From: a virus
Strand: one strand, 5' to 3'
Virus record (IMG/VR): IMGVR_UViG_3300045988_034730
Length of the DNA stretch: 42,840 nucleotides
The notes beneath the pieces were generated by a model that was not told the DNA's origin, ran no database searches, and was given only the letters and a program-made list of their open reading frames with translations. Position numbers and translations under genes: made by a program. Shown here in pieces: positions 898 through 39,507 of the stretch (the stretch's first letter is position 1; every line of letters begins with the position of its first letter).

Positions 898-1096
898 GAT
901 CGGAGATGAAATTATCGTCAAGGGATATGGCGGGCTTGAGTGGAACACGCTCAAGGGGAAAATCGTCAAAATCGTGGATAGCGGGAAGTGGCTTACTGCA
1001 TTTGTGGATGATGGGAATGCGTTCCGGTTGCCGAGCGGAACCGTGATCTACAAAGATGTTGCGCTGAGCAAGGAAGATTCAATCGAGGTGGCGTGA
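872..1096 (+). CDS. hypothetical protein
   Basis: 74-aa ORF preceded by GGGAGAG. Confidence 0.5.
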   Translation: MLKKADDLKIGDEIIVKGYGGLEWNTLKGKIVKIVDSGKWLTAFVDDGNAFRLPSGTVIYKDVALSKEDSIEVA

Positions 1097-1758
1097 TGGA
1101 AGAGAAGAAGAAAAACATTCATGAGTCGATCGCGGCTGTCATGGCTGAGATCGGGGCGATCGGCAAGAACAGCCAAAACAAACAGCAGGGATTCATGTAC
1201 AGGGGTGTTGACGCAGTCATTAACGCGATCAACCCGGCGCTGATCAAGTACAAGATGTATATTGTCCCGGAAGTGTTGGAGTATACATGCAACGAGCGGA
1301 CAACAGCGAAGGGCGGGAACCTGATCTATGCAATCTGCAAAATGCGGTACACATTTTACGCCGAAGACGGATCTTGCATTCCTGCAACTGTAATGGGAAT
1401 GGGTATGGATAGCGGAGACAAGGCAATGAATAAAGCGATGTCTGTAGCATTCAAATATGCTTGCTTCCAGACATTTTGCATCCCGACTGAGGAAATGAAA
1501 GATCCGGATGCAGAGACACCACCGCCAAGTAAACCGGCAAAGCCAACACTGGAAGCCAAATATGTAAACACGCTTTTCGCTGAGCTTCAGCGGACCGGCA
1601 TCGGATTAAAAGGCATCTTACAGACGTACAAAGTCGCAGACGTGCATGATATGACATTTGAGGATTGGAAAAAGGCTATGGATATCCTCAAGGGAAAGCC
1701 AGACAAGCCTGCACCGGATGTCCCGGACAAGGCTGATGAGGGTCTGCCGTGGAATTGA
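1093..1758 (+). CDS. Putative ERF-family single-strand annealing protein.
   Basis: The N-terminal region, ...NKQQGFMYRGVDAVINAINPAL..., resembles the ERF superfamily core. The gene is in a recombination-module position upstream of RusA. Confidence 0.5.
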   Translation: MMEEKKKNIHESIAAVMAEIGAIGKNSQNKQQGFMYRGVDAVINAINPALIKYKMYIVPEVLEYTCNERTTAKGGNLIYAICKMRYTFYAEDGSCIPATVMGMGMDSGDKAMNKAMSVAFKYACFQTFCIPTEEMKDPDAETPPPSKPAKPTLEAKYVNTLFAELQRTGIGLKGILQTYKVADVHDMTFEDWKKAMDILKGKPDKPAPDVPDKADEGLPWN

Positions 1759-7395: not shown

Positions 7396-7400
7396 AAAAA

Positions 7401-7437: not shown

Positions 7438-7498
7438 AGAAAATAAATCGCTTAAGTCCATTATAGCCGACTTGAGCGCCAAAATCAAGGAGGTACTT

Positions 7499-8536
7499 AT
7501 GAGTAACATTAAATCCGATATTATCAATAATGTAACCGTTACAATGTCCGTATATATCCAGGACAGAGAAGCCCTTGATGTATTGGAGCTTGTGTTGGCT
7601 AATGAGCTTATGAAGGTGAATGTCGAGGAGATCACGACTCTTCCGGCAGAGGTTAAAAGTAGCGTGGATCAGCGGAATGCGTATCTGCTGCAGCTCTTTA
7701 TGATCCAGAAACGCCACCTAAAAAAGCGCACGATTGAGGCGTATATGGGATCTGTACGCCGCTTGGTGCTGGCTACAGGGAAACGTCTGGATCTTATCGA
7801 CACGCTGGATATTGATTGGTATCTGGCACAGTATGAGAAGCACAAAGGCGTGCGGACGGAGCAGATCACGAACCGCACCTACAACAACGAGCGCCGGAAC
7901 CTCTCGGCATTCTTTACGTGGATGCGGAAGTCAAAGATCATACAGGACAACCCCGTAGATAATGTGGACGCGAAAAAGGTTGTTATGGGGAAAATCGACT
8001 ACTATAGCCGGGAGGAGATCATTGAGCTGCGGGACGCGTGCAAAACGAAGCGGGATCGTGCCATTATCGAGGTATTCCGTTCCACGGGTGCGCGTGTAGG
8101 CGAGATCGCAGATATCCGCCTGGATCAAGTGGATATGCATACCGGGGACATCCCGATCATTGGGGAAAAGGGCGGGCGTGCCAGAACATTATATCTGGAT
8201 GCGGAGGCGAGATATTATCTTGCAGCGTATCTTGATGAGAGGAAGGATAACAGCCCGTACCTCTTTACCCAGACCGTAGGCGCAAAGCGAGGGAGGATGG
8301 GGACGGCAACGTACCGGACTATCATGAGAAAAATTGGCAAGCGTGCGAAGATCCAGTGCCGCGTGTATCCGCACAAGATGCGTAAGACACTGGGAATGGA
8401 TCTCAAGCAGCACGGCCTTGATATCGGAATTATCCAAGAGATCCTCGGACACGCGTCACCGGCAGTCACCAGTATGTATTACGCTCAGTCCACTACAGAA
8501 ACGCTGAGAAGCGTACGCCAGAGGTTGAGCGCATAA
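7499..8536 (+). CDS. Tyrosine recombinase (XerD/integrase family); the second recombinase of the element.
   Basis: The C-terminal catalytic region reads ...RSTGARVGE...HKMRKTLG...LGHASPAVTSMYY, matching the R..K..H-R-H..Y tyrosine recombinase signature. AAGGAGGT ribosome-binding site 7 nt before the ATG at 7499. Confidence 0.8.
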   Translation: MSNIKSDIINNVTVTMSVYIQDREALDVLELVLANELMKVNVEEITTLPAEVKSSVDQRNAYLLQLFMIQKRHLKKRTIEAYMGSVRRLVLATGKRLDLIDTLDIDWYLAQYEKHKGVRTEQITNRTYNNERRNLSAFFTWMRKSKIIQDNPVDNVDAKKVVMGKIDYYSREEIIELRDACKTKRDRAIIEVFRSTGARVGEIADIRLDQVDMHTGDIPIIGEKGGRARTLYLDAEARYYLAAYLDERKDNSPYLFTQTVGAKRGRMGTATYRTIMRKIGKRAKIQCRVYPHKMRKTLGMDLKQHGLDIGIIQEILGHASPAVTSMYYAQSTTETLRSVRQRLSA

Positions 8537-10239: not shown

Positions 10240-10253
10240 GAAAGGAGAAAGAA

Positions 10254-10759: not shown

Positions 10760-10825
10760 CTGCAAATAGGGCGGTTTCTCTGCGATGTATATATCAACTA
10801 TACTTTCACGCAGGAGGGATGCACT

Positions 10826-11248
10826 ATGGAGACTGTAAGTAAATCGCCAGAGCTGCGGAAGCTGGGCGATAAGATTATAAAAGAGCACGCAGACCTACAC
10901 TGGATCAAGGACAGCCGGATCCGCATTGGATACTGCGAGAGCGATCTTGATAAGCGCAAGGGTGGTGGACTCGTCTATGCAGAGTGCCACAAGGTACGCC
11001 CACTCTATCAGGCATATGTACCGTATGACTTTATCATCGTTTTCTATACGCCAAACGCCGATCTTATGACAGATGCACAGCGCGATATCCTTATGTATCA
11101 TGAGCTACTCCACGTAGGCATGGACCCCACTGGCTCCCTACGCCTTGTCCCGCATGATATCGAGGATTTCAAAGCGATCCTGGATCAGTACGGTATGCTG
11201 TGGGATATGCCGGAGGAGCTGAGAGGAGCTGATCTGGATGGCACGTAA
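10826..11248 (+). CDS. Putative HExxH zinc metallopeptidase-like protein.
   Basis: ATG at 10826 sits after CAGGAGGG. HELLH motif in ...ILMYHELLHVGMD... The long upstream extension in the ORF track has no ribosome-binding site. Confidence 0.5.
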   Translation: METVSKSPELRKLGDKIIKEHADLHWIKDSRIRIGYCESDLDKRKGGGLVYAECHKVRPLYQAYVPYDFIIVFYTPNADLMTDAQRDILMYHELLHVGMDPTGSLRLVPHDIEDFKAILDQYGMLWDMPEELRGADLDGT

Positions 11249-18276: not shown

Positions 18277-18468
18277 ATGAGTAAAGTGATGTATGAGAAA
18301 GAACAGATTGATAAGGTTCTGGTGCTTTTAGATCAGGTGAGGGTTGAGGGGTTGCAAAGTTTCCGAAACATGACGCTTGCGGAAATGACTCTTCGTGATT
18401 TCAAACTGGTACAGGAGCAGGAAGGAGCCGGAAAGGAGGCCGACGATGGCAATAACGAGCATAGTTGA
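18277..18468 (+). CDS. hypothetical small protein
   Basis: 63-aa ORF preceded by GGAGTG. Confidence 0.4.
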   Translation: MSKVMYEKEQIDKVLVLLDQVRVEGLQSFRNMTLAEMTLRDFKLVQEQEGAGKEADDGNNEHS

Positions 18469-20173
18469 CTATCTCAAAAAGAACAATCAGGACAGCTCAT
18501 ACAACGCCAGAAAGACACTGGCGGCGAACAATGGGATTTCTGATTATAAGGGAACAGCGGCGCAGAATATGAAGCTCTTGCAGATTTTACAGAGCGGATC
18601 ACAGGGGCAGACACCATCGGCGGCGGTGACTGCCGGGAACAATGCCACTACCGCAAACAGCCCGACAACGACCGCCACAAAGTCTTATCAGAGTACATTT
18701 AAGCCCACAGAGCTGACGGATCGCTACAAGAATCTCATGACCAGCAACGAGAACAACTTCAAGACAAGCGACCAGACCAACAGCTATCAAAACAAGATGC
18801 AGAGTGCGGAGAAGCCGTTTAAGGCATCCAGCTACACGAAGAACTATAAGAAAAAGCTGTCACAGGTGGAGAACAGCAAGCCCGGCGCGTACCAGTCCGC
18901 ATACGAGAGCACCATCAACGATATTCTGAATACGATCAATAACCGTGGGCAGTTTGATGTCAAGAATGATGCAAACTACAATGCACTGTACGACCAGTAC
19001 CGGGAGCAGTACGAAGCGCAGGCAAACAAGGCGATGAGAGATACCCTCGCCAGTGCGAATGCGGTAACCGGCGGCTATGGGTCCACATACGGGCAGGCAG
19101 TAGCACAGCAGGCGTATGACGACACCATGCAGGGCTTGAACGGGCAGAATTTGAATCTGCTTAACCTTGCCTACCAGATGTATTCTGACGATCGTGCCAA
19201 TGATTACAACAAGCTGGCGGCATATCAGGGGCAGGACAATACCATGTATAACCGCTATCGTGATACCGTCTCTGACTGGCAAAATGACCGGAATTACTAC
19301 GCGAACCAGTATCAGCAGAATTACTCGAACGACCGGAATGCGTACGAGAACGACCGGAACTACTATTCCAGCCAGTATTGGAACAGCTACAACAATGACC
19401 GGTCTGCATTTGAGAATGACCGGAACTACTTTTCCAACAGCTATTGGAACTCCTTCCAGAACGACCGGTCTGCGTATGAAAATGACCGTACCTTCGATTA
19501 CAACATGGATCAGGACGCACTTAACCGCGATGATGCAAACTATCAGAATGCTTTGCAGACAGCTATGGGGCTGGCACAGAGTGGTCTTTCTGTTCCGGCA
19601 TACCTTACGGAAGCGATTGACAGGTACAACGAAGCACATGGTCTCTCTGGCGGCTCAGCAGGGCAGATGGCTTCTATTGCGGCACAGGCGCTGGCGGCTA
19701 AGAAGTCAAGTGCGAAGGGATCTTCTGGAGGATCATCAAAGAAATCTGGAAGATCTAAATCATCTGGAAAAGGTAAGATCACGGACGGAAGCATGAATTC
19801 CGGTTCAGGCGCCAGCATGTCAGATGCAACGGCAACGAAACTTAAAAATGGGCTTGCAGCAGCAAATGATAATATACTGGCAAGTAAAACACTCATGGCT
19901 GATATGAAGGCAGGAAAGAGAAATTCACTTACAGGAATTGGCAAACTTTCGTCTATTGCTTCATCCTTAAGCAATAGATCAAATACGCCACTTACAGTAG
20001 ATGCTGTATCGTCTGCTGCACCGGTCCAGGATATAACCAACAGTCACGGTAATGGCTGGGTCTATGTGGAAGGAATGGGGCGCATGACATGGGACGAGCT
20101 TGAATCAGAAATCGACAATGGTAAAGTTGTAGAGACAATGAAGAATGGTGTTTACACATATAGAAAGGCGTAA
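18446..20173 (+). CDS. Tail-associated protein with a LysM-like N-terminal domain and tandem 22-aa Asn/Tyr-rich repeats.
   Basis: ATG at 18446 sits after AAAGGAGG. The N-terminus is ITSIVDYLKKNNQDSSYNARKTLAANNGISDYKGTAAQNMKLLQIL. Three copies of a 66-bp repeat lie at 19283-19480 and encode NDRNYYxxQYxxxYx-NDRxAxE. Ser/Gly/Lys-rich C-terminal region. Confidence 0.45.
   Translation: MAITSIVDYLKKNNQDSSYNARKTLAANNGISDYKGTAAQNMKLLQILQSGSQGQTPSAAVTAGNNATTANSPTTTATKSYQSTFKPTELTDRYKNLMTSNENNFKTSDQTNSYQNKMQSAEKPFKASSYTKNYKKKLSQVENSKPGAYQSAYESTINDILNTINNRGQFDVKNDANYNALYDQYREQYEAQANKAMRDTLASANAVTGGYGSTYGQAVAQQAYDDTMQGLNGQNLNLLNLAYQMYSDDRANDYNKLAAYQGQDNTMYNRYRDTVSDWQNDRNYYANQYQQNYSNDRNAYENDRNYYSSQYWNSYNNDRSAFENDRNYFSNSYWNSFQNDRSAYENDRTFDYNMDQDALNRDDANYQNALQTAMGLAQSGLSVPAYLTEAIDRYNEAHGLSGGSAGQMASIAAQALAAKKSSAKGSSGGSSKKSGRSKSSGKGKITDGSMNSGSGASMSDATATKLKNGLAAANDNILASKTLMADMKAGKRNSLTGIGKLSSIASSLSNRSNTPLTVDAVSSAAPVQDITNSHGNGWVYVEGMGRMTWDELESEIDNGKVVETMKNGVYTYRKA
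19283..19500. repeat. Three and a half tandem 66-bp coding repeats.
   Basis: The peptide NDRNYYANQYQQNYSNDRNAYE occurs about three times with minor variation. The repeats explain spurious overlapping ORFs on both strands. Confidence 0.8.
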
Positions 20174-20175: not shown

Positions 20176-21606
20176 ATGATCATCTTAAGAAGCAGATCTC
20201 TTATTATTCCGACTGACGAGTACAATCTTGGCAATGACTATGACACTAATACAGCGACAAGAGTTTTTCAACTTGAGCGTGTGATGGAAGGCATAGACCT
20301 TGCCAATCTCATGTTTAAGCTGGATCTCACCTACGCAGACGGTACAAGCGATACGCTTGCACTCGATAGCGAAGTCACAGACGATAAGATCAACCTTACA
20401 TGGACCGTGACAAAGAATCAGCTTCATGTTCCGGGAACTGTCGTGGTACAGATCCGTGCGCTGAATGTGGACGGAAATATGAAGTGGACTTCCTACATCG
20501 GTGCGTTCTTTGTTGAAGCGTCTATGTTTGGCAGTGCTGATTATAGCGGAAAGCTCACCGAAGTCGAGCAGTTTGAGGTTGCGATTAAATCAGAAAAAGA
20601 ACGTGTACAGAACGAAAAAGCCAGACAGGACGCAGAAGCAGAGAGAGTACAAGCCGAAGCGGAGCGCAAGCCTGCCGAAGAAGAAAGGAAAACTGCCGAA
20701 GCGGAACGCAAATCTGCCGAGACGGTACGTTCCAATGCAGAGACAGCGCGAGAATCGGCGGAAACAGAACGTGAAAAGTGGTACAATTCAGCAAAGACAA
20801 ACTTTGATGCGGCAATAGCTTCAGGCGATAAGGCAGAGGAGATTGCAAACTCATTGGAGACCAATGTGGAGGCCAACATGAAAGCGGCAGCGGCTTCTGC
20901 AACGGCAGCGGCTGGGTCTGCATCAGCGGCAGCAGGATCAGCGAACGAAGCGAAGCAGTATAGCCAGAACTGGTCGGCATTAGATCAGAGAGTAACGAAA
21001 AACGCCGACGACATCGCTGCCACAAATAACAATTTGAGTAAGAGATTATTAGTTGGAAACAATATTGCATCTGCTGATCTCTCAAATGATATGCCTGATG
21101 AACGATTTGGCACATTATCTATGCGTTTTAGTGACGGAACAATAAATCAATTAATACTCTTAAAGGACACAGCGAATGTTTCCATTTTTAGAGATAATAA
21201 ATGGATAGAACAATATTGGTTTGCAACAACGTCAATGTTGTCCGATTATGTTCCCAAGTCAGATCTCGTTGCTTCCTCTTCGGACATACAGTCAAAACAA
21301 AACATTACTGACAGCTCATACATTAAATTTTATAAATACGGAAAGATTGTCGTTGCGCATATTCAAATAACAACAACATCGAATTTATCTGGATACGATA
21401 CGCTAAAAGTGGGAGTTGCCCCGAATGGATTCAAACCATTGTATGAATGCAGAAGCGTCGTTCTTATGCAACAAACCAATGTATCGAGAATTTTAGCATT
21501 CACAACATATGGCGATATTAATTTATGGAACTGGTCATCGGATAGTTCTATCACAACTCCATCCGGTAGCGCATTAAATGGTTTCGCGGTGTATTGCGTT
21601 GCTTAA
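20176..21606 (+). CDS. Tail fibre / receptor-binding protein. It has a constant N-terminal part, a coiled-coil stalk and a variable C-terminal cassette.
   Basis: N-terminal anchor domain, then Ala/Glu/Arg-rich heptads AEAERKPAEEERKTAEAERKSAE. After base 21042 the coding sequence becomes AT-rich and encodes a beta-rich C-terminal domain. Confidence 0.55.
   Translation: MIILRSRSLIIPTDEYNLGNDYDTNTATRVFQLERVMEGIDLANLMFKLDLTYADGTSDTLALDSEVTDDKINLTWTVTKNQLHVPGTVVVQIRALNVDGNMKWTSYIGAFFVEASMFGSADYSGKLTEVEQFEVAIKSEKERVQNEKARQDAEAERVQAEAERKPAEEERKTAEAERKSAETVRSNAETARESAETEREKWYNSAKTNFDAAIASGDKAEEIANSLETNVEANMKAAAASATAAAGSASAAAGSANEAKQYSQNWSALDQRVTKNADDIAATNNNLSKRLLVGNNIASADLSNDMPDERFGTLSMRFSDGTINQLILLKDTANVSIFRDNKWIEQYWFATTSMLSDYVPKSDLVASSSDIQSKQNITDSSYIKFYKYGKIVVAHIQITTTSNLSGYDTLKVGVAPNGFKPLYECRSVVLMQQTNVSRILAFTTYGDINLWNWSSDSSITTPSGSALNGFAVYCVA
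21024..21041. repeat. Left copy of an 18-bp perfect inverted repeat, aaataacaatttgagtaa. It lies inside the fibre gene and encodes NNNLS.
   Basis: Exact reverse-complement match to 21860-21877. The position within the codon frame is the same in both copies. Confidence 0.8.
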
Positions 21607-21888
21607 TCAGATCTTTTTCCATGACAGAGGCGAACCATCCAATGTATACATTCCCGCGTTCGAGACCCCGATTACTAACCAGTTTGAAGCAAAAAAGAAC
21701 ATAGTATTTTTTTCTGGTAACAGGTCTGCTAATTGCCAATCGATGTATCCGATATAAAATTTTGAGTTTTGCCTTGAAAGGTCAACAATATCTTGCAAGG
21801 TTTGATTTGACTTGATAGTACCATAAAAAGACACTTTTTTATTAAGATCTGTCTGTACATTACTCAAATTGTTATTTACATAACACAT
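21607..21888 (-). CDS. Promoterless, opposite-strand alternative C-terminal fibre cassette; a candidate second receptor-binding domain.
   Basis: 93-aa ORF with no ribosome-binding site. An in-frame TGA lies 9 nt upstream of its ATG. Its stop abuts the + fibre stop with zero spacing. It begins MCYVNNNLS, sharing the NNNLS junction with the fibre gene. Confidence 0.4.
   Translation of the reverse strand: MCYVNNNLSNVQTDLNKKVSFYGTIKSNQTLQDIVDLSRQNSKFYIGYIDWQLADLLPEKNTMFFFASNWLVIGVSNAGMYTLDGSPLSWKKI
21860..21877. repeat. Right copy of the 18-bp inverted repeat. On the - strand it encodes NNNLS.
   Basis: ttactcaaattgttattt is the reverse complement of 21024-21041. Confidence 0.8.
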
Positions 21889-21917
21889 TTTAATTCAAAA
21901 AAAGAAAGGAAAAAATT

Positions 21918-22427
21918 ATGAATTTTAAAGAAGCTTTGAAACTAATGAAAAAAGGAGAAAAAGTAAAACTTCCGGGATGGGGAGGTTACTGGTACTGGGA
22001 TCCGAGAAAGGGAACTGTAATGATGCAGTGCCGAAAGGAGGACGCTGATGATGGCGAGCTTCTCGACATCCGCGATACGCAGAGAGTAGAATACACGCTG
22101 CTTAACGTGGCATCAGATGAATGGGAGATTGCAGACGAGCATAATTGCCCGGTGCTGGGTGGAATTGCAACATTTTCTTTCTCAGATGCGATCAGATACT
22201 TAAAACGTGGACTTAAGGTTGCCAGAAAAGGCTGGAACGGAAAGAAACAGTATATTCAGCTGGCCACGGCAATCTCGTATAAATCGGCTGATGGAGAGAT
22301 TGTGAACTGTGATCACGATGCCATCGGAAACAAGGCCATTGCGTTTATCGGCACAAGTGGGGTGCAGATGGGATGGCTTGCATCACAGGCGGACATGCTG
22401 GCAGAGGATTGGACATTCGCAGACTGA
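21918..22427 (+). CDS. Hypothetical protein with two internal copies of a DUF2829-like motif.
   Basis: Repeat 1 is MNFKEALKLMKKGEKVKLPGWGGYWYW. Repeat 2 is FSDAIRYLKRGLKVARKGWNGKKQYIQL. AAAGGAAAA ribosome-binding site. Confidence 0.45.
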   Translation: MNFKEALKLMKKGEKVKLPGWGGYWYWDPRKGTVMMQCRKEDADDGELLDIRDTQRVEYTLLNVASDEWEIADEHNCPVLGGIATFSFSDAIRYLKRGLKVARKGWNGKKQYIQLATAISYKSADGEIVNCDHDAIGNKAIAFIGTSGVQMGWLASQADMLAEDWTFAD

Positions 22428-22610
22428 CCATTTCGGTGAGTTCACCGAGATGGCTTGTTATTAATTTGAGCAAGGACAGGAAGACACAAAAACGGCGGCA
22501 CCGGGGGAAAGCGGGGTGCCGCCAAAAGAAAGGTAGTAGGGATATGGGACCCTACACTAATACAAACGCAGAAAAAGTAAAATTGTGACTATTATTGTAA
22601 AAAATAACAG

Positions 22611-22656
22611 AAGCTCCCGCACCTCTCAACGATGTGTCCCAGGGAGCACTTTTTTT
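22611..22656 (+). terminator. Candidate intrinsic terminator.
   Basis: Imperfect stem (gctccc...gggagc, with a gtgt/gcac alternative) followed by a T7 run. Confidence 0.45.
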
Positions 22657-22720
22657 AGGTCGGTATACGGTAAAAGATTCATTCGCTATGATTAACAAAA
22701 AAGAGTGAAGGAGTAGTGTT

Positions 22721-23032
22721 ATGGACGAAGCTACAAGAGAAGCATTTGAAAGGATCCATGATGAGGATAAAAGGCAGAACCGTCGGCTGGATGAATTGGA
22801 GAGGGTCACAAAGACTTTGCAGGAGATCACAAGCTCCGTCCAGGAATTGGCACTTAATATGAAGCACATGGCCGAAGAGCAGGCAAAACAGGGGCAGAAG
22901 CTTGACCAGCTTGAAAAAGCACCATTGGACAATTTAAAGGCAGCCGAGGCAACGGCACAGTCTACGATTGTCGGAATTGTTGTAGGAGCACTGGCAACAG
23001 GATTGATTCAGCTAATAGTGGCAAACATTTAA
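22721..23032 (+). CDS. XhlA-like protein: coiled-coil plus a C-terminal transmembrane helix, of the type associated with lysis.
   Basis: GAAGGAG ribosome-binding site. Coiled-coil N-terminus and hydrophobic C-terminus IVGIVVGALATGLIQLIVANI. Confidence 0.5.
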   Translation: MDEATREAFERIHDEDKRQNRRLDELERVTKTLQEITSSVQELALNMKHMAEEQAKQGQKLDQLEKAPLDNLKAAEATAQSTIVGIVVGALATGLIQLIVANI

Positions 23033-23041
23033 GGAGGAGCT

Positions 23042-26000
23042 ATGGCAAGTCAGTTTGTAAAAAATATGGCACAGCAGACAAAAAAGAAAAAAAAACAGCA
23101 GGACGCAGCGGTTGATGCATTAAAAAGCCGTTCTGGAAAGTCTGTAACACAGGTGGAGCAGAGCCTTTCAAACAAATCCATTCAGAATGCTGCGAAGAAG
23201 GTGGATGGAACAAGCGCGTCAAAACCAACTCCAGCAAGGCAGCTTTCGAAACCTGCCAAGAAATCAGACGATGCATGGAACTCCAGCGTAAACGGGGGGT
23301 CAAGCAGCTTTGTAAAGACAATGGCGCAGAATCAGCGTGCACACTACGAAGAAATCAACCGTAATGCGGCTGTTGATGCAATGAAGCAGCGGTTTAGAAA
23401 TACGCAGAATACGCATACAGACTATAATGACAGCTTTTCTAATGATTCCGCGGTTACCCAGAAGAAAGCCACGGCATCAAATGCACAGAAAAACCGCTTT
23501 ACATATTCACCGTCCTATATTCATTCTCAAAAGACAATGGCACAGGATAATAGCACATTGGCTCTTTCCGATGCGCAGAAGAAGAACATGCCGAAGAACA
23601 TCACAGTGAAGAACCAGAACGAACCGAATGCGCGCGTTGTAGACCAGTCCTTCAAGAACTTCAATCCGAATGACCCGAATTATTCCACTCCGGCTGATGA
23701 GCGTAGTTACCGCAATACAAGAGAGGGAGCATATGCCTATAAGCATCCAATCGCAGGTGTGGCAAGCCATGTTATCAACAACATTGGATCCGGCTTTGAA
23801 GGTATTGCCGGAACCGCATACCAGGCAGTGACAGGGAAAAAACTGGACGATCAGTTCTTTAAGGGGACTTATGCGGCGCAGGATGCACAGTCGGGTGTCA
23901 GACGGCGCGTACAGGACGCTACAGGCGGCAGACAGGACGGCATCAGCACCACAGGGGAAAATGCGGCAGGGTTCCTTACGGACACAGGCATGAGCATCCT
24001 TGACAGCGCGGCGAACCGTGCGCTGGCGAGCTATTTCGCACCAGGCAAGGCTGGCGAGGTCGGCGGTCTTGCGCTTATGGCTGGCGGAGCGGCGGCTGGA
24101 CAGCTCACGGATCTTAACCAGAATGAGAAGGTGTCCGGCAGACGGGCGGCAGTTGATGCGGCGGCGAACGGCGCATTTGAGTATTTATCCGAAAAGCTTT
24201 CATGGGACAAGCTGAACGCATTCAAGGACATGGAGGTATCTCCGCACAATGTCGGTGAGGTTATCAAGAGGATTGCACAGCAGGCGGCAACGGAGGGCGG
24301 CGAGGAAGTCTTCTCCACGCTTGCAGATGCTGCGGCAGATAGCTTAATCCTTGGCAACGAAGCAGAATATGTTAGTCAGTATAACGCATATAAGGGAAGC
24401 GGAATGTCCAACGGAGAAGCTATGCAGAATGTGGTTTACAATCTTCTCAAGGAAAGTGCATTGTCCTTCCTTGGCGGCGCGATCTCCGGCGGTGTCATGG
24501 GATCCGGTGCAACCGTCATGAACTACATGAACGCAAAGGCAAACCAGAACTTCACCGAGGATGAACTGCGCCAGACGGCAGATGCAATCGACACAAGCCC
24601 AGAAGCGTATACTCGTGAGGACGGCACTGTTGATACAAAAGGTCTCGACCAGGCGATCGCGACATCGAAAAAACTTTCCGGCTATGCGAATAAGCTTGCG
24701 AATGGGGACATTCTGACTCTTGAGGAACAGCAGGACATTTATAACGGCGTGGAAAGCACCATTGACCGGGCAGCAGATGCAAAGGGTGTTGCGCCTGTCA
24801 TTACCGAGGACAAGAACCTGGATGAGATGGTCAATGACTGGGTTGAGGAAGCGACAGCACAGGAAGAAGAACGTGCGAGCAGTGAACCTATTTCTCTTTC
24901 ATCTACACCAGAAGAAGCCAAAGCGTCCACACAGGCGGCGATTGATGCGATTAACAGCCCGGTCAATGTGGTAGATGAAACAGCCGCAGAACCGGTCACA
25001 GAGAGCCAGGCAAGCCCGGCGGAACAGCTTGCCACAGAGCTTGCACAGGAATCCGCACAGGGCACGAACGAGAATCCGCCAGAGGAGTACATGGATGCCC
25101 AGGATATGGAACCGGACACAGCTATGTCCGGTCAGGCTGACGATATTGTTGACGTCAACAATATCGTGCCGGAAGATGATGCCCCAACGCTTCCGGGCAT
25201 CGAAGAACTTTCTAACCAGTATACCGGAAATGTTAAGACATCCTTTGAAAACGGATATGAAGGTGTAGATATTCTGTGGTATGATGATAATATGAGAAAG
25301 GTATACCAGGCAGCAGTGAAGGGAGAAACTCTGCGGGATCTTATGCAGAACGATACAGATTTTCAGAAGTTTTTCAGCAGTCCTTATGGGGACGCGGTTC
25401 TTCCCTTCTACGATGCGGCATATGCCGAAGGAGTAAAGACCACAGGAGGTAATGGTTATGGCGATTTACACAACAATGATGAAGTACGTGACGAAGGAGC
25501 AGTACGACAGCCTGTCGAGGTTCGGGAAGGAGATCTTGGAGGATCTGATCCGGTACGCGCCGAAGAAGTTACAGACGATGCAGCAGGACGGCAGCCTGTA
25601 TCCGACCTTGAAGAAGTCGGGGGATCAGATGTTGGATCGGTATCTGGATCTTCTGGACGCGGGGTATCAGGACAACGAAGCACTGGAAGTAGTGCGGGAG
25701 ATCAAGTATCAGATCACGTCGGAGGAAGAGACGGAGGAGTAACGCCGCCGGAGCTGGTTCAGAGTGCGCAGAATGGCGTCACATCGGATAATGACCAGAA
25801 TATTACAACTGAATCAACGCAGAAAACGGAACAAAACGTACCGAACACGAATTCAGGCACAGAAGAAACGGTTGGTAACTTAACTAACTCAACTAACTCA
25901 ACTTCTAACTCAACTGAACCGAGTTATAACTCGAATAATTCAATTAAAGAGCAGAATAAAGAGAAAGATAAAAAGCCGACCAAAAAGAAAGCTGAGAAGA

Positions 26001-29000
26001 AAGCACCGAAGGAAGCTGTAACTGTTGAGGAGCAGACAGAGCAGAAGAAGGAAATTGCCACACAGGAGAAGCCGAAGGGGAATAACTATGTCCTCACGGC
26101 TGAGTCTGCAAAAAGCATTCCTTCCACGCCTGCAACGAGGCTTTCTGCGAACCTTGATGCAGTAAAGACCTTAAAGGACATCATGGCAGGAGACCGTATT
26201 GCGACAGCAGAGGAGCAGACGATCCTTGCGAAGTACACCGGATGGGGCGGCATCGGGGAAGATATGTGGAAGCGCGCGGAAACGGAACTTTCCGGGATTC
26301 TCACTGATGAGGAGCTGAAGACAGCAAGATCGTCTATCACCGATGCGTACTACACGGATCCGGCAATCATTAACGGCATGTATAAGGGCTTACAGTCCAT
26401 CGGTTTCAATGGTGGTAAGCTCTTGGAACCGTCTGCCGGTGTAGGAAGGTTCATCGGTGCAATGCCGTCTGATCTTATCCCTTCCGTTCGCTCTTGGACG
26501 GCTGTGGAGCTTGATACGGTCACGGGTAATATTGCAAAGGCGCTCTACCCGATTGCCGATGTGCGTGTACAGGGCTTCGAGAAAGCGATCCTTGCGAATG
26601 GCTATATGGACGCTGTGGTTGGCAATGTACCGTTTGGTGAGTACGGAGTCACAGATAAGCGCTACCCGTCTGCCATTACATCGAAGATCCACAATTATTT
26701 CATTGCGCGTTCTCTCGACACACTGCGTCCGGGCGGTATTGCCTGCCTTATCACTTCCAGCGGTACGATGGATGCAAAGGGAGAGGCTGCACGGAAATAT
26801 TTCAGCGGACAGGCTGATTTAATCGGAGCAATCCGTCTTCCGAATACCGCATTCAAGGGTACCGGAACGGAAGTAGTGACGGACATTCTGGTATTCCAGA
26901 AACGTGCGGCAAATACTCCGTATCAGGGCGAAGCCTTTCTCGGAACGAGCTGGCAGTATAACACAGGAGATATCAACCAGTATTTTGCCGATCACCCGGA
27001 AATGGTTCTTGGAAGAGCCAGAAGAACAACGGGGCAGTTCGGACGTACAGTCACGACTTACGATCCGCTTGAGGGAAAAGGCAGCTTAGAGGAGCAGATT
27101 ACAAAGGCATTCCAGCACATTGACCGCAAGATGGAATATCCGAAGGTGAATCATCACGAGGAAGCTGTCAAGGCGGTCAAGGAAGCCAGAAACAAGAAGC
27201 AGGGAACGGCGTACAAAAAGGACGGCAAGCTTTATAAAAATGACGGCGGAGTGGAGACGGAATTAAACCTTGAAGCGAAGGAGAAGGCCATCTATGAGGG
27301 AGCTGTTGAGATACGCGACACGGCACGCAACCTTGTGGATGCGATGCTGACCGGAAAGTCTGATGCGGATATTGCAAAGCTCCGTGAACGTCTGAATAAG
27401 CAGTATGATAACTTCACAGCGAAGTACAAGAACGGTTTCCATACGCCTGCAGTCAAAAAAGTCCTTAGGAACGACACGGACTATGCGTTCTTACAGTCCT
27501 TGGAGAAGGTCAAGGATAAGACCGTCTCTAAGAACGATATTTTTACGAGGAACACGGTCAATCAGGCAGTGGATATTACATCAGTCAACACGGTTTCTGA
27601 TGGTATCGAGGTTTCTTTAAATCAGTTAGGATATATTGATTCCCAGAAGATTGCAGACCTGATGCGTAAGCCGAAAGCAGAGGTTGAGAAGGATCTTGAT
27701 ACCGGAGATCTTGCGTTCCGTGACGCAGACGGGAACTTTGTCAGTGCCACTACATATCTTTCCGGTAACGTCCGGGCAAAGCTCAAGGAAGCAGAGATGC
27801 TTGCGGAGGGCAATCCTGAGTACAAAAAGAATGTGGATGCACTTAAGAAGGTTGTCCCGGCATATAAGCATGGAAAGGATATCTCTGTCAATCTTGGTGT
27901 TACATGGATCCCGGCAGAGCTTTACGGGGATTTTGCGTCCGAACTTCTTGGAGGAAATCCAGGGGACGTAACAGTCACATATTCCAAAGTCGGCGGCTAT
28001 GACGTAAAGGTCAATCGTTATTCTCTTTATCGGACAGCGGAGAACACGAAGATGTTCGGTAATAAGTATATGGGATTCCTTTATTCAAACAACAACGACA
28101 GGGGAATGCTTTACAACATTCTTAACAACAGGGATCTCACGGTAAAGTCAACGGATCTTGACGGAAAGAGTGTTCCAAACTTGGAAGCCACGGAAGCTTG
28201 CAAGGAGTTAAAGAACAAGATCACGGACGAGTTCAATAAGTGGCTGTGGAAGGACGAGGGACGGCGCACGCAGCTTGAGGAAGTCTACAATGACAGCTAT
28301 AACGCAATGGCGCGGGCGCATTATGACAGCAAGGTTACAATTCCGGGGCAGACTGCGGATATTCAGCTGCGCGATCATCAGGGGTCCGCAATCAACCGCA
28401 TTGTGCAGTCCCCGTATAATACGTTGCTCCAGCACGGCGCAGGAGCCGGTAAGACCTTCGCGATGATCGGTGCAACAAAGAAACTCCGTGAACTTGGCAT
28501 CGCAAAGAAGCCGGTCATTGTCGTTCCAAAGAACAAGGTCGGTGACTGGATCAACGACTATTACAAGATGTTCCCGACTGCGAATGTACTCGTGGCGGAT
28601 GACACCACATTTACAGCGGCAAACCGGAAGGAGTTCACGAACCGAATTGCCACAACAGACGTGGATGCAGTCATTATCTCTAAAGAACAGTTCCAGAAGA
28701 TTCCAATGTCAGAGGAATATCAGAAGGACTTTATCCAGGAACAGATTGACTCCATCATTGCCATGCAGGAGGAGTTGAAAGCGAATAAGGGTGGTAATCC
28801 GTCTACCACGAGACAGCTTGAAAGCCGCAGGAAATCGCTGCAAAATCGTCTGAATAAGCTGGCAGACGCAAAGCGTGATACCGACAATATCACCTTTGAG
28901 GAGACGGGAATTGACTATGTGTTCGCTGATGAAGCCCAGGCCTATAAGAACCTTGCCTATACGACAAATCTGTCCAATGTTGCTGACATGGGAAAACCGG

Positions 29001-32000
29001 ACGGAAACCAGATCACGTTTGACATGAAGATGAAAACAGATTATGTGCGGAACATGCAGGGCGGTAAAGGCGTTGTGTTTGGCACTGCAACTCCGGTTAT
29101 GAACTCTCCAGTAGAAGCGTATGCGATGCTTCAGTATCTTTGCCCGGAAGAATTGGAGAAGCGCGGTATCTATAATCTGGACAACTTTATTGATATGTTT
29201 GGGCGTATTGAGGGTATCACAAGGCAGGATGCAGTCGGAAGATCATGGATCAACCGGAACTCCTTCACCGGTTTCATCAACATGGGTGAATGGCAGCAGA
29301 TCTGGGGAACCGTTACGGACCGCGTACGGACACAGGACGTGCCGGGAATCAAGCTTCCGAAGATGAAGGGCGGAGACCGTAACGTGGTGATTTGTCAGGC
29401 TGGTCAGAAAGCAAGGGAAACCATCAATGGACTTGCAGACCGGTTAAAGACAGGAGATCGCAAAGGAAAAGACCATATATTCGCATTGCAGAGTGATGGT
29501 AAAAAGGCATCGTTCTCCCAGCGCATGATTGACCCGTCTCTTCCGTATGGTGCGAACGAGAAAGTTCCGACCGCGGTAAATGAAATTTACAAGATCTGGA
29601 ACGAGTCTAAGACTTTTACAGATGTGAACGGCAACACGCAGGAGAACGGCGTTCAGCTTGTATTCTGCGACTATGGTGTGCCGAAAACAGAAAGTAAGAG
29701 CAAGACCACGAGTAGCGTGGAGACCGAAGCGGAAACGGACGAGTCCTACAATCCGAACGAAGAATTTTTCGATTCACGGGTCAATGTCTATCAGGACATG
29801 AAAGACATGCTGATTGAGAAGGGTGTACCGGCAGATCAGATCGCATTCATTCACGATGCGACGAACGACGCAAAGCGGAATGCCCTTTACGAGAAGATCC
29901 GGAGCGGAGAGGTGCGTATTCTCATTGGTTCCGCAAAAAAGATGGGTGAGGGGCTTAATGTGCAGGATCGTGTTGTTGCACTGCATGAAATGAACCCGCT
30001 TGCAAGACCGGGAGATATTGAGCAGGTAGAGGCGCGTGCAATCCGACAGGGAAACCTTTCACCGGAAGTCGCAGTAAATGTCTACGTTACGGAAGATACC
30101 TTCGATACGAAGCAGTGGGATACATTACGGGCAAAATCCCAGTTCATTGACGAGATCACCAGTGGAACGTATAGCGGAAACAACGCGGACTTCTCTTCTA
30201 ATGAATTTGGCGCGTCTGCTGGAGACATTATGGCGGTAGCGTCTGGCAATCCGCTTTTGAAAGAACAGGCGGACAACAATGATAAGCTCCGCAAACTGGA
30301 AGGCTTGAAAAAGCAGTTTGACCGCAGTATCTATGATGCACGTGTGGACTTAGAGCAGACCGAACGCCGTATCCGCAATACCAAAGAAATGCTTCCGAAG
30401 TATGAAGCGGACGCAAAGAAGGTCATGGACCTTACTGGAGATAATTTCAAAGGAATGGTTGGTAAGAAGTCCTTCACGAACCGCGAGGAGTTTGGTGCAG
30501 CACTCATTGTGGCGGCAAAGAAAGCGCAGGTCGCAAGGGCTGACTCCACGAAGGTCGGTTCCATCAGTGGCTTTGACATCTATGCAGGGCATGATGGTGG
30601 CGTGATCCAGCTTGTAGGCGAGGCGTCTTACGGTTCCCAGATCAACCTGTTTAGCTCCAAAGGAACGACTACGATGGTTGTGAACGCTGTGAAGAAGATC
30701 CCGAATCAGCTTAAGAGTGCGCAGACATCTCTGTCTGTGGACGAGGCGAATGTTCCGAAGCTGAAAGCAGTAATCGGTTCGGAGTTTTCAAAGGCAGATG
30801 AGCTGGCGGCAACAAGAAAACGTGCGACAGAGATCGAACAGGAGCTTCTTGCCAATAATGCGGAGGCTGTTTCCGATGCGAAGGAAAGCAGCGAGGGCGG
30901 AGTTTATGCGAGAAAGCTCAAGGCGGCAGGTATAAAGCCGAAAGCAGCGGCAGGTAAGCCGGTCACAGGCAAGAGCGCGGTGCAGGGCTTTATCAGCCAG
31001 ACGAGTGATGCAAGGCCGCAGGATTGGACAGCAGAGAAGAATACGAACAGTACAGCGGAACATGCGAAACCACTTGCGGAGATCATCGGAAAGGCGATGC
31101 ACGATTTCGGAATTAACCTTGATACCGGATATGTCCGTGGTGCTGGCGTAACCGGTCAGTACAACACGAATGACAAGGGATTGAGGACAAAGATTGCCAA
31201 CGACCTTCCGTCTGTGTCTCACGAGTTCGGTCACTGGCTGGATGATAAGTACAATATTCTGAAAGATACGGCGATCCCGAAGGCTGCTGAGGAGGACTTC
31301 CAAAAAGCATTTGAGAAGGAGCCGGGGAATAAGGCGGCGTATGATCCTTCACTTCATAAGATCGAGGGTGTTGCGGAATTTATCCGGTACTATCTCCAGA
31401 ATAAGGACACAGCAGCGATTGACTATCCGGCGGCAACAGAGTATATCAAGAAAAAGATCACCAATCCGACAGAGCTGGCACGTTTTGAGCGGTTCGCGGA
31501 CGAGGTAAACGCATATTATTCCGAAGGTGCAAAGAGTGCGGCAAGTGCTCTGGTGTATAAGGAAAACCGCATCAGTGATTACCGTACAACGAAAGAAAAA
31601 GCGCAGGACGCAGTAGATAAGCGTATACAGGAATGGGTAGATTCCAACCATGCAATCCGGTTACTTGACCGGAAAACAGGTGGAAAAGCGTATGTCATGG
31701 CGTCCAATTCGGCATACTCAGAAGCCCGCGCAAAGCAGATCCTTGAAGGGGACTTACTGGATATCAACGGAAACTACGTCGGTCATGGTTTGAAGTGGGC
31801 ATTACAGGGTATCAATACAGTAAATAAGGAAGAGTACACAGCATTCAACGAGTATCTGACGGTTCTTCACGGTATCGAGTGGATCGAAAACGGCAAGCGT
31901 GTATTTGCTGATGACCGGATGAACAACCGACAGTGGATGGCAAGCCGCGCACTGGAACTTGAGAACGAATATCCGAAGTTCAAAGAAGCAGCAAAGCGTG

Positions 32001-38457: not shown

Positions 38458-38480
38458 GTATCACACGAAGTATCACACGA
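38458..38480. repeat. Two tandem direct repeats of gtatcacacga(a); candidate arm-type sites on the right side of attP, overlapping the integrase stop codon.
   Basis: Same 12-bp motif and orientation as 38260-38283. Confidence 0.6.
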
Positions 38481-39507
38481 CAAAACGGTTCTTTTTTGCA
38501 TATTCTTCTTCAATTTTAGCGCGTTCCTCATCAATGACATTCTCGTAGACACGCTTCAGGACAGAGCTTCCAGGCTTCCATCCGCCAATGGCTTCGATGT
38601 AGCGATCTGGTACACCATCGACATGCATCTGGGACGCTGCGTAATGCCGTAAGTCATGGAAGCGGAAGGATGGAAGACCGGCGTTTCGGAGCGCCTTTCT
38701 GAAATGCCGGTAAAGGATGTCCGGCGACATACCCACAACGGTATCTTTATCATGGTGAATCGTTTTCACAAGGTCGATCACATATTGCGGTACACGAACG
38801 GTCCGATACGAATTATATGTTTTCGGATTGTGAATGACCCATTTCCAGTCGTCGGTCTCAGAGATCCCTTTGTTGATCCGTATGGTGCAGTTTTCGTAGT
38901 CAATATCATCGAAGGTGACAGCACATGCTTCTCCCCGCCGCATTGTCCCAACCGCAGCAAATAGGATCCCTGCCTTGGTCTCAGGTGAATCACAATGATC
39001 GAGAAGGGACTGGACATCACTGGCAGAAGGCGTGTAGTATTCTAACTTCCTTTTCTGCGGAAATGTAATGTTTGGAGTAAATGCGGGAAGATATACGGAG
39101 AGTGCTGCGGATATGAGACCGAACACGTTTCGGACGTATTTTGGTGAGTGCTCCATAGAAAGATCGGAAACAAACCTCTGCAAATCAGTATTTTTAACGA
39201 CAGACAAATCAGCAGATGCAATCTTGTGTGTCTGGATACGGCGAAGCGCAGTGCAATAACCTTTGATTGTTGATGGTGACAGCACATTCCGCTTCATTTC
39301 AATGTACCTCTCGCACGCCTGTGCGACCGTCAGAGACTCTTTCAGCTCTCTTCGGTGATTCTTCCACTCGGTAGCCAAAGCCTGTGCCTGTGCCTTTGTG
39401 GGAGCTGTGAAGCTCTTGTAGTGTTTCTTTCCGTCATTATCCGTGTAGTCGTAGACCTGTACGCGGATATTCCCGGATGGCAGTTCGTTTTTCTTCTTTC
39501 TTGCCAT
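38473..39507 (-). CDS. int: Tyrosine integrase (phage integrase family).
   Basis: 344 aa. Catalytic region ...RRGEACAV...RFHDLRHYAASQ...Y. AAGGAGGAATTGTG ribosome-binding site. The gene sits next to the attP-like site at the end of the lysogeny module. Confidence 0.85.
   Translation of the reverse strand: MARKKKNELPSGNIRVQVYDYTDNDGKKHYKSFTAPTKAQAQALATEWKNHRRELKESLTVAQACERYIEMKRNVLSPSTIKGYCTALRRIQTHKIASADLSVVKNTDLQRFVSDLSMEHSPKYVRNVFGLISAALSVYLPAFTPNITFPQKRKLEYYTPSASDVQSLLDHCDSPETKAGILFAAVGTMRRGEACAVTFDDIDYENCTIRINKGISETDDWKWVIHNPKTYNSYRTVRVPQYVIDLVKTIHHDKDTVVGMSPDILYRHFRKALRNAGLPSFRFHDLRHYAASQMHVDGVPDRYIEAIGGWKPGSSVLKRVYENVIDEERAKIEEEYAKKNRFVV

Follow-up and report, generated by a model that had tools for sequence, protein, structure and literature searches.

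In the fibre-inversion systems of Mu (G/Gin), P1 (C/Cin) and p15B (Min), a constant fibre N-terminus is followed by opposed C-terminal modules enclosed by inverted repeats that lie inside the coding sequence; inversion preserves the reading frame and changes the host range. A serine invertase is encoded beside the invertible segment in the Gin/Cin/Min systems; their crossover sites measure ~26 bp, and they include a Fis-dependent enhancer. The R64 shufflon employs a tyrosine recombinase, Rci; conservation in its asymmetric site, sfx, is confined to ~19 bp, and the site is in frame where the constant part of an adhesin meets the variable part. In Clostridioides difficile, RecV is a master invertase that acts in trans. 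In Bifidobacterium prophages, the Rin shufflon uses an asymmetric in-frame site of 11 bp, rix, at the constant/variable junction of a receptor-binding protein (Mavrich et al. 2018, PMC6109161). A second Bifidobacterium locus has an 8-bp repeat at such a junction but lacks a recombinase in its flanks, and the paper proposed that it is served by an enzyme in trans; the evidence given there was inversions between related genomes (PMC6109161). Mpi of Bacteroides fragilis is another master invertase that acts in trans (cited in PMC6109161).

The DNA studied here (the window) is a stretch of 42,840 nucleotides from a temperate, podovirus-like phage of the human gut. Its fibre locus is a variation on the classical phage fibre-inversion switch; we found no description of the NNNLS site family in the literature. 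The features of the window that enter the argument are as follows.

1093..1758, + strand: ERF-family single-strand annealing protein (Pfam ERF, E = 4e-27)
7472..8536, + strand: Xer-like tyrosine recombinase (“Xer2”), 12.5 kb upstream of the locus; candidate invertase
20176..21606, + strand: fibre ORF, 476 aa
20176..21023, + strand: constant N-terminal part of the fibre, residues 1-283; conserved N-domain and Ala/Glu/Arg-rich coiled-coil shaft
21024..21041, + strand: left inverted repeat and putative crossover site, in frame as (T)NNNLS(K)
21042..21606, + strand: module A, the expressed C-terminal module, 188 aa plus stop; low G+C
21607..21859, - strand: module B, an alternative C-terminal module that is silent; 84 aa plus stop
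21607..21888, - strand: minus-strand ORF, 93 aa, abutting the fibre ORF with 0 nt between the stops
21860..21877, - strand: right inverted repeat, sharing the codon phase of the left one
21878..21897, - strand: outer right flank, with an incidental ATG at 21886-21888 (M-C-Y-V) and an in-frame TGA at 21895-21897
38473..39507, - strand: phage integrase (tyrosine recombinase), beside ImmA/HTH immunity genes and 16.6 kb from the locus; weak candidate invertase

The repeat is the 18-mer AAATAACAATTTGAGTAA, which stands at 21024-21041 on the plus strand and again, reverse-complemented, at 21860-21877; the arms are 818 nt apart, and the second copy faces the opposite way, 836 bp downstream of the left one. 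The window has no further copy, even with three mismatches allowed. The chance expectation for the repeat is 0.07, and two copies appeared in 0 of 100 shuffles. Each copy is read as xxA AAT AAC AAT TTG AGT AAx and encodes N-N-N-L-S. The first-pass annotation had claimed a perfect inverted repeat with this shared codon phase, a tail-to-tail arrangement of the modules with zero spacing, and a module B devoid of a ribosome-binding site of its own, and these claims hold. The arms are 100% complementary, the ORFs 20176..21606 and 21607..21888 abut, no purine-rich ribosome-binding site can be read ahead of the minus-strand ATG, and the in-frame TGA stands 6 nt ahead of that ATG. Further, promoter-like matches near the right flank are no more numerous than expected by chance.

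As judged from sequence comparison, the effective site is the 17-mer AATAACAATTTGAGTAA (positions 2-18), which is common to many unrelated phages. Across 60 distinct contexts, chosen by a criterion that took in positions 2-12 and not 13-18, positions 2-18 are 92-100% conserved, and the synonymous positions of the five site codons are essentially fixed. Conservation falls abruptly at both edges, to ~45-60% just outside the 17-mer. Position 1 goes with the flank, and positions 13-18 can go with the cassette. The conserved site is 17-18 bp long and has no clear dyad. Its sharp edges are not in themselves proof of a site-specific enzyme, because, where the flanks are unrelated, the 17-mer is the only homologous place for a crossover.

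Opposed fibre C-termini within in-frame inverted repeats are what the window shares with the Gin/Cin/Min/Pin systems. It differs from Gin/Cin/Min in its site, a 17-mer rather than ~26 bp, in its hosts, which are gut Clostridia rather than enterobacteria, and in that no serine recombinase is encoded anywhere in it. This last point had been claimed in the first-pass annotation and stands: Pfam scans of the window ORFs returned no Resolvase domain, and the best phmmer match of Hin and gamma-delta resolvase seeds to all window ORFs of >=70 aa had an E-value of 0.28. The same claim had overlooked the two tyrosine recombinases. The window's short asymmetric repeat, in frame at a constant/variable junction, is of the kind found in tyrosine-recombinase shufflons. 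The likeness to the Rin system extends to its residence in temperate phages of Gram-positive gut bacteria, whereas the phylum, site sequence and fibre family differ, and the window has two cassettes and no adjacent rin-like gene; further, its site is common to many unrelated backbones, with whole cassettes moving between them. Shufflons have three or more cassettes; the window has two sites and two modules, and related loci have three or four. The tyrosine recombinases of the Rci and Rin systems are dedicated and adjacent, whereas the nearest to this locus are 12.5 and 16.6 kb off. R64, set beside the window by description, also differs in serving a plasmid pilus adhesin, with many cassettes and rci adjacent. 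The resemblance to Mpi and RecV lies in dispersed inverted-repeat pairs of shared consensus with no recombinase gene per locus, an arrangement seen here at 21 loci; those enzymes mostly flip promoters in bacterial chromosomes.

In related gut phages of the L076/L246 type, the fibre locus is a shufflon of several cassettes in which an Xer-like recombinase is embedded; fibre shufflons with a tyrosine recombinase thus have a precedent among close relatives of the fibres studied here. These loci have in common with the window the shaft motif ...TQLYSDLNTTNNNLS..., some tip modules and, inside some cassettes, the 17-mer. Every cassette and the recombinase gene in them are flanked by CTNAATTGTATAGTGA (QLYSD/E), which lies 24 nt upstream of NNNLS; nothing in the window matches this motif within 1 mismatch, and the window has no embedded recombinase.

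The segment in the window looks like a real host-range switch because the same DNA is found in both orientations in other metagenomes. Positions 21025-21876 (852 bp) are 99.9% identical to a contig that holds them in the inverted sense (L158) and 99.8% identical to one that holds them in the direct sense (L161). These two contigs represent one siphovirus, which is unrelated to the window phage. Between them, the left flank is collinear over 4212 nt (99.24% identity), and the 854-nt segment is 99.88% identical but inverted. On the right, 33 nt of flank could be compared, ~15 nt of them beyond the repeat, and these are collinear. The segment of this siphovirus was assembled in the inverted, B-on state in three independent runs and in the direct state in one sample. 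A second flip distinguishes two window-type phages, L123 and L157: an 878-bp segment is 99.66% identical only as the reverse complement, and the flank is collinear at 97.3%. The breakpoints of both flips fall inside the repeat, as in shufflons, and both orientations are observed between assemblies, not within one population. In each flip the cassette has diverged less than the backbone, which marks both events as recent. The earlier proposal that recombination in the repeat would swap the C-terminal domain in frame is supported by these two natural flips. Module B also occurs in the expressed position: one fibre (P0126) has its 84 aa joined in frame to an N-terminal part, and another (P0009) has a B-like module on an N-terminus 100% identical to that of the window. 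Likewise, the silent module of L123 matches the expressed tip of a third fibre (P0005) at 99% identity.

For the window phage itself, every contig with its exact fibre (11 read) or exact portal (21 read) that reaches the fibre is A-on. The proteins expected of its flipped form (372 and 197 aa) were absent from ~15 billion sequences on exact look-up, and the same look-up found none of the predicted flipped proteins of two relatives. Two contigs of the window phage stop exactly one k-mer beyond the left repeat, as would be expected if the assembly graph branches there.

The first-pass annotation had suggested seeking the same repeat in relatives, and a convergent in-frame pair is present at 21 of 21 loci examined, from several phage types. 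These loci have a long N-terminal ORF on one side of the pair and almost none on the other; only 0-51 open codons precede the silent cassette, which often lacks a start codon. Open frames of 72 aa upstream of some of these “silent” sites were rejected as coding, as they look non-coding. The silent, start-less cassettes stay intact at all 21 loci; truncated or decayed ones occur in some relatives (L149, L066). One prophage of Clostridium sp. OF03-18AA has three site pairs. When viral contigs were scanned with the 18-mer alone, at least 13 real loci emerged, the matches listed being mostly due to chance, and JGI metagenome contigs gave only 5 loci. Among one-genome-per-species bacterial contigs, none matched the fibre N-terminus and one prophage matched module A. 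Isolated-phage records held no relative of the fibre: the DNA search matched the Tad2 gene only, and the protein search matched nothing.

The fibre ORF matches PHROG 25888 and tail-fibre PHROGs. More than 60 fibre homologues are ~90-100% identical over residues 1-288 and diverge completely past NNNLS. Conversely, at least nine unrelated N-terminal scaffolds carry module A, at 38-96% identity, behind NNNLS. Identical cassettes are found in unrelated phage backbones, and therefore cassettes are exchanged as well as flipped. Two-state switching is no more prominent than such exchange from phage to phage.

We conclude that the segment is very probably a genuine invertible and exchangeable fibre cassette. 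The full explanation, an invertible fibre-tip switch with a site-specific mechanism, is one that we favour with some reserve. A constant N-terminal scaffold is joined at the in-frame AATAACAATTTGAGTAA to a C-terminal module that would be swappable and bind the receptor. Conservative recombination between the two site copies would invert the 852-bp segment, whereupon the fibre would end in B and A would turn silent; an in-silico flip indeed yields an unbroken 372-aa fibre with module B at its end. The reaction would be site-specific and catalyzed by a tyrosine recombinase not adjacent to the locus, and modules A and B may confer different receptor specificities. The inverted arrangement of the sites would also let co-resident phages replace the entire cassette by double crossover.

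Some of these observations could be accommodated with no dedicated invertase. On that account, RecA or ERF would rarely recombine the 17-18 bp of identity, NNNLS would be a conserved shaft linker, the downstream module would be a stored spare and not part of a programmed switch, and inversions and inter-phage swaps would be rare events. A recombinase adjoins neither the window locus nor ~20 other pair-bearing loci, the phage encodes an ERF protein, and NNNLS and QLYSD both fall within a repeated shaft motif. Further, module A is internally mosaic, with 75 conserved proximal aa and a distal half in two alternatives, which shows ordinary homologous exchange, and assemblies of the exact window phage are all in a single orientation. 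However, 17-18 bp is below the length for efficient recombination by RecA or annealing proteins. The backbones diverged before the two clean inversions and before several transfers of whole cassettes, and both the fixed synonymous positions of the five codons and the intact start-less cassettes argue against this account, which we regard as rather unlikely. The sole A-on state of the window phage and the absence of a recombinase linked to the locus are also compatible with a fossil: a switch once active that no longer flips in this phage, with module B as dead cargo. Flipping would have been lost because no cognate enzyme is available, and the relatives with decayed silent cassettes fit such a history. 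Yet both repeat copies are perfect and the module B ORF is intact, only 1 nt in 852 separates its segment from the copy expressed in the siphovirus, and the two contigs that end just past the left repeat suggest a branch in the assembly graph. A fossil thus seems quite improbable to us.

It is very hard to sustain the idea that the minus-strand ORF is an ordinary separate gene, such as one for a fibre chaperone, with a coincidental or structural repeat. It has an ATG and 93 codons, and a weak promoter-like match lies upstream (21951-21922), but such matches do not exceed chance, the ribosome-binding site is missing, and a stop precedes the ATG by 6 nt. Moreover, the equivalent cassette lacks any start codon in other loci, the same 84 aa are in frame on a fibre N-terminus in P0126, and the repeat is far beyond chance. 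The comparative evidence comes wholly from metagenome assemblies, and one locus (L277) may be a chimera assembled through a shared cassette; the apparent flips could in principle be artefacts of assembly. The repeat alone cannot cause misjoining, however, because its 18 bp are shorter than the assembly k-mers. Three runs yielded independent assemblies of the B-on siphovirus and two runs did so for L123/L124, and the alignments are clean to the base level; we consider this possibility negligible.

Given site-specific recombination, the question of the enzyme arises, and we see an even chance that it acts in trans and comes from a co-resident element or from the host. That it is the product of the phage's own Xer-like gene (7472-8536) is a tentative possibility, and that it is the integrase is doubtful. 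Xer2 has Pfam Phage_integrase and SAM_4 domains, its matches to Xer-type NCBIfam models are under the cut-offs, and it is 29% identical to the shufflon-embedded recombinase. In relatives of Xer2, the site is absent from the surrounding 10 kb and the gene is not flanked by repeats, and a sister phage that has the site pair (L131) lacks the gene; Xer2 was therefore kept as a weak candidate. The integrase's attachment core is not similar to the site, since the window has no third site copy (<=3 mismatches). No recombinase adjoins the locus in the window, and neither of its tyrosine recombinases is linked to the site. The available flanks of most of ~20 other pair-bearing loci likewise hold no local recombinase, the exceptions being an Int-like ORF ~2.3 kb from one pair (L030) and the embedded recombinase of L076. 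The latter was withdrawn as an NNNLS invertase, as it is universally flanked by the different (LYS) motif; the embedded shufflon recombinase is associated with CTNAATTGTATAGTGA, not with NNNLS. The likeness of the reverse-complemented NNNLS site (ACTCAAATTGT) to the LYS site (ACTCAATTGT) is probably coincidental. Among the candidates examined, no recombinase co-varies with the site. The ERF protein is relevant only to the homology-driven alternative.

Host range is the main unknown for uncultured human-gut phages. If the switch works, a single phage genome holds two receptor specificities, and podoviruses and siphoviruses of gut Clostridia could swap ready-made receptor-binding modules at one 17-base junction. 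This would bear on how phages keep pace with host-surface variation and on the fragmentation of fibre loci in metagenome assemblies. The locus is also a clean test case for a phage fibre switch relying on a recombinase encoded elsewhere, a dependence so far only proposed, for one Bifidobacterium phage (PMC6109161). We offer as a speculation, and one we think somewhat unlikely, a “community shufflon”: a 17-bp in-frame site in the fibres of unrelated temperate phages of gut Clostridia, at which cassettes would be flipped and exchanged by a recombinase in trans. An enzyme from a co-resident prophage or the host would flip the resident two-module cassette, and whole cassettes would also be exchanged when phages meet in one cell. 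Were this so, dozens of receptor-binding modules would form a pool open to many lineages, and orphan module pairs elsewhere in prophages would be reservoirs. The junction is relevant to engineered fibres because it is a natural in-frame splice point; the enzyme, if found, would be a compact tool for inversion and cassette exchange.

A diversity-generating retroelement combines a reverse transcriptase with a template/variable repeat pair that differs at adenines. Here the modules are unrelated in sequence and are not near-repeats, and no reverse-transcriptase domain was found among the scanned ORFs. Structure prediction of both modules, proposed in the first-pass annotation, was informative for one of them: module B has a predicted fibre-like fold, and the AF2 model of module A (pLDDT 48) was too poor for a fold search. 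A feature absent from that annotation is a fall in G+C content from ~0.50 to ~0.35 exactly over 21000-21900.

The 18-mer AAATAACAATTTGAGTAA lies at 21024-21041 within the fibre gene and its reverse complement at 21860-21877, forming a perfect, 100% complementary 18-bp inverted repeat with 818 nt between its arms. The window contains no third copy, even when up to 3 mismatches are allowed; the chance expectation is 0.07, and two copies occurred in 0/100 shuffles. The plus-strand fibre ORF (20176..21606, 476 aa) abuts a minus-strand ORF (21607..21888, 93 aa) with zero spacing, and both copies of the repeat are read in one phase, xxA-AAT-AAC-AAT-TTG-AGT-AAx, which encodes N-N-N-L-S (hereafter the NNNLS site). 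The minus-strand ATG (21886-21888) has an in-frame TGA 6 nt upstream and, as read from the sequence, follows a pyrimidine-rich stretch with no Shine-Dalgarno element; it is very unlikely that this ORF is an independent small gene. Promoter-like matches around the cassette do not exceed the frequency seen after shuffling. Inversion of the segment in silico yields an uninterrupted 372-aa fibre that ends in the silent module B (21607..21859, minus strand) in place of the expressed module A (21042..21606, plus strand). Further, a drop in G+C from about 0.50 to 0.35 coincides exactly with the repeat-bounded segment. The first-pass annotation had described the repeat, its shared codon phase, the tail-to-tail modules, the minus-strand module with a stop before its ATG and no ribosome-binding site, and the preservation of frame upon inversion; all of these features hold.

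That annotation also held that recombination within the repeat would swap the C-terminal part of the fibre, and suggested a search of relatives for the segment in either orientation. Comparisons between assemblies point to just such a swap: both orientations occur, with breakpoints inside the repeat, for the window's own cassette in a siphovirus and for a sister cassette pair in phages of the window's type. Window positions 21025-21876 match contig L158 (10337-11188) in reverse orientation at 99.9% identity, with 1 mismatch in 852, and contig L161 (4193-5053) in direct orientation at 99.8%. Contigs L158 to L161 come from a single siphovirus, which has tape measure and tail terminator genes and whose flanks show no relationship to the window's. 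L161 and L158 are collinear on the left at 99.24% over 4212 nt and on the right over the 33 nt available, about 15 nt of which lie outside the repeat, and the 854-nt segment between their repeats is inverted at 99.88% identity. The inverted state, a 201-aa fibre ending in module B (P0126), was assembled independently from 3 sequencing runs; the other state is a 305-aa fibre ending in module A (P0067). Among phages of the window's type, L123 and L124, with flanks 100% identical to the window's at the protein level, have a B-like module on the fibre and a silent A-like module, and L157 has the same two modules in the opposite arrangement. The 878-bp repeat-to-repeat segments of L123 and L157 are 99.66% identical, only as reverse complements, and the fibre N-terminus is collinear at 97.3%. 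In both flips the strand switch of the alignment falls within the repeat. Cassettes have diverged less than the backbones that carry them, and the flips are therefore recent.

NNNLS acts as a module boundary in these fibres generally. Searching with the window's fibre found more than 60 proteins that are ~90-100% identical to it over the first 288 residues and unrelated right after N-N-N-L-S, where the C-terminal modules, 75-210 aa long, are of dozens of different kinds; module A, in turn, is carried after NNNLS by at least 9 unrelated N-terminal scaffolds. The same inverted repeat, which the first-pass annotation proposed to look for in related genomes, is present and frame-matched in 21/21 loci for which the available DNA allows a judgement (the window itself, 12 contigs from IMG/VR, several from ENA and Logan, and one prophage, that of Clostridium sp. 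OF03-18AA): a second in-frame site, 655-1237 bp away, faces the first and heads a second module. The distance between the ends of paired modules ranges from -6 to 250 nt and mostly does not exceed 26 nt. At each locus one site stands behind a long N-terminal ORF and the other behind 0-51 open codons, save for 3 loci with longer, apparently non-coding open frames upstream of the second site. Conservation of the 17 bases AATAACAATTTGAGTAA is 92-100%, synonymous positions of the five codons included, across 60 distinct site contexts with 32 different outer and 40 different inner flanks; the contexts were selected on positions 1-11 of this 17-mer, positions 12-17 being free of that criterion. Conservation falls to ~45-60% at 1-2 bases outside the 17-mer.

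Variant sites bear on the position of the crossover. Position 1 of the 18-mer belongs to the flank: it is A in the window and T at either side of the siphovirus cassette, and identity between the cassettes begins at position 2. Positions 13-18 can differ between paired sites, in which case they move together with the cassette; the variants are as follows.

AGGTAA in L121, a sister phage
GGGTAA in L076
GAGTCA in L026
GAGTGT in L030

From this behaviour we infer that exchange probably takes place within AATAACAATTT.

Conservative site-specific recombination between NNNLS sites, by a tyrosine recombinase that would be encoded away from the locus, is the explanation that we favour as the probable one. 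The site is short, asymmetric and invariant, even at silent positions; silent, start-less cassettes are kept intact; the divergence of the backbones predates two clean inversions and several whole-cassette transfers; and tyrosine invertases typically use short asymmetric sites, 8-19 bp in length. Among such short, asymmetric sites is sfx; others are rix and 8-bp examples (PMC6109161). The main rival, to which we give a distinctly smaller chance, is homology-driven recombination at a conserved linker, aided by the phage's single-strand annealing protein (ERF). With unrelated flanks, the 17-mer would be the sole place for a homologous crossover, and thus sharp boundaries alone do not discriminate between the two mechanisms. 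It is improbable that the switch in the window's phage is a fossil, as the uniform A-on state (fibre ending in module A) of all its assemblies suggested, given that its repeats are perfect and its module B is intact. That the flips are artefacts of assembly is very unlikely, because the assembly k-mers exceed the repeat in length and the flipped states were assembled repeatedly.

The window is a temperate, podovirus-like phage known solely from human-gut metagenomes, and no isolated phage is related to its fibre. Its genes include the following.

Structural and packaging genes: large terminase, P22-type portal, internal virion protein, capsid protein
Tail fibre with a Peptidase_S74 chaperone domain
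7472-8536 (+), second, Xer-like tyrosine recombinase (Xer2)
23042-34960, single 3972-aa ORF with Eco57I-type methyltransferase, ResIII helicase and LPD38 domains, kept in sister phages
38473-39507 (-), tyrosine integrase adjoining ImmA/HTH immunity genes (lysogeny)
Others: ERF and a Tad2-like anti-Thoeris gene

The window holds no serine recombinase or invertase, in agreement with the first-pass annotation, and two tyrosine recombinases. Near the integrase, in the lysogeny module, a scan of the window found no site-like sequence. Xer2 is an armless, Xer-like enzyme; essentially no NNNLS site lies within 10 kb of its relatives (80 of 176 IMG/VR relatives), no inverted repeats flank them in 33 checked, and Xer2 and an NNNLS pair occur together on one other contig only. 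In the sister phage L131, the pair is present and the Xer2 block is replaced. There, an unrelated 2-kb block (4071-6018) stands in place of window 6544-8536 (a PAPS-reductase-like gene and the Xer-like recombinase), which is absent from L125.

Between the cassettes of a three-site fibre array, contig L076 encodes an Xer-like recombinase that aligns with Xer2 over 343 aa at 29% identity, and all relatives of this enzyme (71-100% identity) are embedded in multi-cassette fibre shufflons. The L076-type gene and every cassette are flanked by CTNAATTGTATAGTGA (Q-L-Y-S-D/E, the LYS motif), with the NNNLS 17-mer 24 nt further in at some cassettes only. Since the LYS motif is absent from the window at up to 1 mismatch, the enzyme cannot be assigned to the NNNLS site. 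The L076-type loci do show that fibres of the window's family are a substrate of tyrosine-recombinase shufflons; NNNLS and QLYSD are shown to belong to a single repeated shaft motif. LYS-type shufflons and NNNLS-only pairs also exchange modules, and the breakpoint is then at NNNLS; the VEVNDL module (L030 vs L246) is an example. Shufflons with the embedded recombinase were seen at L246 4800-7900 (the same contig as L076), L248, L097, L250-L256, L258 and L266; in these, the motif lies ~50-60 bp before the start of the recombinase gene and ~102 bp after its end. The orientation of this gene relative to the fibre differs between loci, and the gene would therefore itself lie in an invertible segment. 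We found no published description of gut-phage shufflons with this motif and an embedded recombinase.

The principle of fibre inversion is classical. The window's cassette is functionally like Mu G, P1 C and p15B Min, but lacks their defining adjacent serine invertase; the first-pass annotation had invoked the architecture of Mu G and P1 C. The cassette also resembles the Rin shufflon of Bifidobacterium prophages, and closest to it is a second, recombinase-less inverted locus in the same report, whose authors proposed that an enzyme acts on it in trans, something then unreported in phages (PMC6109161). Systematic surveys of programmed inversion include tail fibres in their lists of targets (PMC9881135; PMC5903667). 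In the literature on programmed inversion we found no description of the NNNLS site family or of Clostridia phages. What is new is the site family, the lack of a linked enzyme, and one junction and one module pool common to unrelated gut phages.

The predicted model of module A is poor (pLDDT 48). The module is a mosaic of a conserved proximal ~75 aa (NNNLSKRLLVG...ATTSMLSDY) and one of two unrelated distal halves, in 193-aa and 198-aa forms, which implies a second exchange point inside it. Its position in the fibre and its mosaicism suggest a putative receptor-binding tip, and A and B may differ in receptor specificity.

Cassettes also appear on different backbones. The identical A/B cassette is found in the window's podovirus and in the siphovirus (L158/L161), and module A occurs at 91-99% identity on at least 3 further fibre scaffolds. 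The same flanks hold different cassette pairs in L021, L078 and L069, and likewise in L084 and L114; cassette G+C is 33-36% in all cases, regardless of backbone. In L277 (ENA ERZ28598462 scaffold_6611), a fibre N-terminus of the P0068/L003 type is joined at the left repeat to the A/B cassette, beyond which 2.9 kb are 100% identical to the window's right flank (matches to window 21025-22980 and 23039-23979). Natural recombination would account for this contig, as would chimeric assembly through a cassette common to two phages of one sample. Two contigs of the window's phage stop shortly after the left repeat: L272 (Logan ERR12723876_30790) 13 nt past the 18-mer (18 + 13 = 31, which we take to be the k of the Logan assembly), and L274 (ENA ERZ913819 k127_436, MEGAHIT) 110 nt past the repeat (17 + 110 = 127). 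The terminal 31-mer and 127-mer begin at the repeat boundary. Contig ends exactly one k-mer past the repeat are characteristic of a branch in the assembly graph at that point, and module A would thus be joined to more than one left context in those samples; the extra context may come from the flipped state or from another phage that shares the cassette.

The Clostridium sp. OF03-18AA prophage (L162, QUEP01000001.1) has 3 inverted NNNLS pairs (834-1755, 3925-4941 and 10000-10880). The fibre N-terminus is joined to the middle pair only; the others are orphan tail-to-tail module pairs, one following the endolysin gene, the other flanked by a sigma-like gene and the distal-tail gene. No head or tail-tube genes lie between its terminase and distal-tail gene, a gap that may reflect either loss of DNA by deletion between sites or an artefact of scaffolding.

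Upstream of the window's fibre, 18395-20173 encodes a 592-aa protein whose N-terminus matches peptidoglycan-binding-like PHROGs and which has a degenerate Asn/Asp/Arg/Tyr-rich repeat run (NDRNYY..., repeat families D2-D4, 19283-19489). Directly downstream of the cassette lies the Tad2-like gene (21918-22427), without counterpart in the sister phages L121 and L157; it is the region's only DNA similarity to isolated phages (Ruminococcus gnavus and Dorea phages). Another sister phage (L122/L125 17162-19954), with a portal 98% identical, has a 930-aa fibre that matches the window's only over the first ~216 residues and has neither NNNLS site nor inverted cassette, a non-switching alternative at the same genome position.
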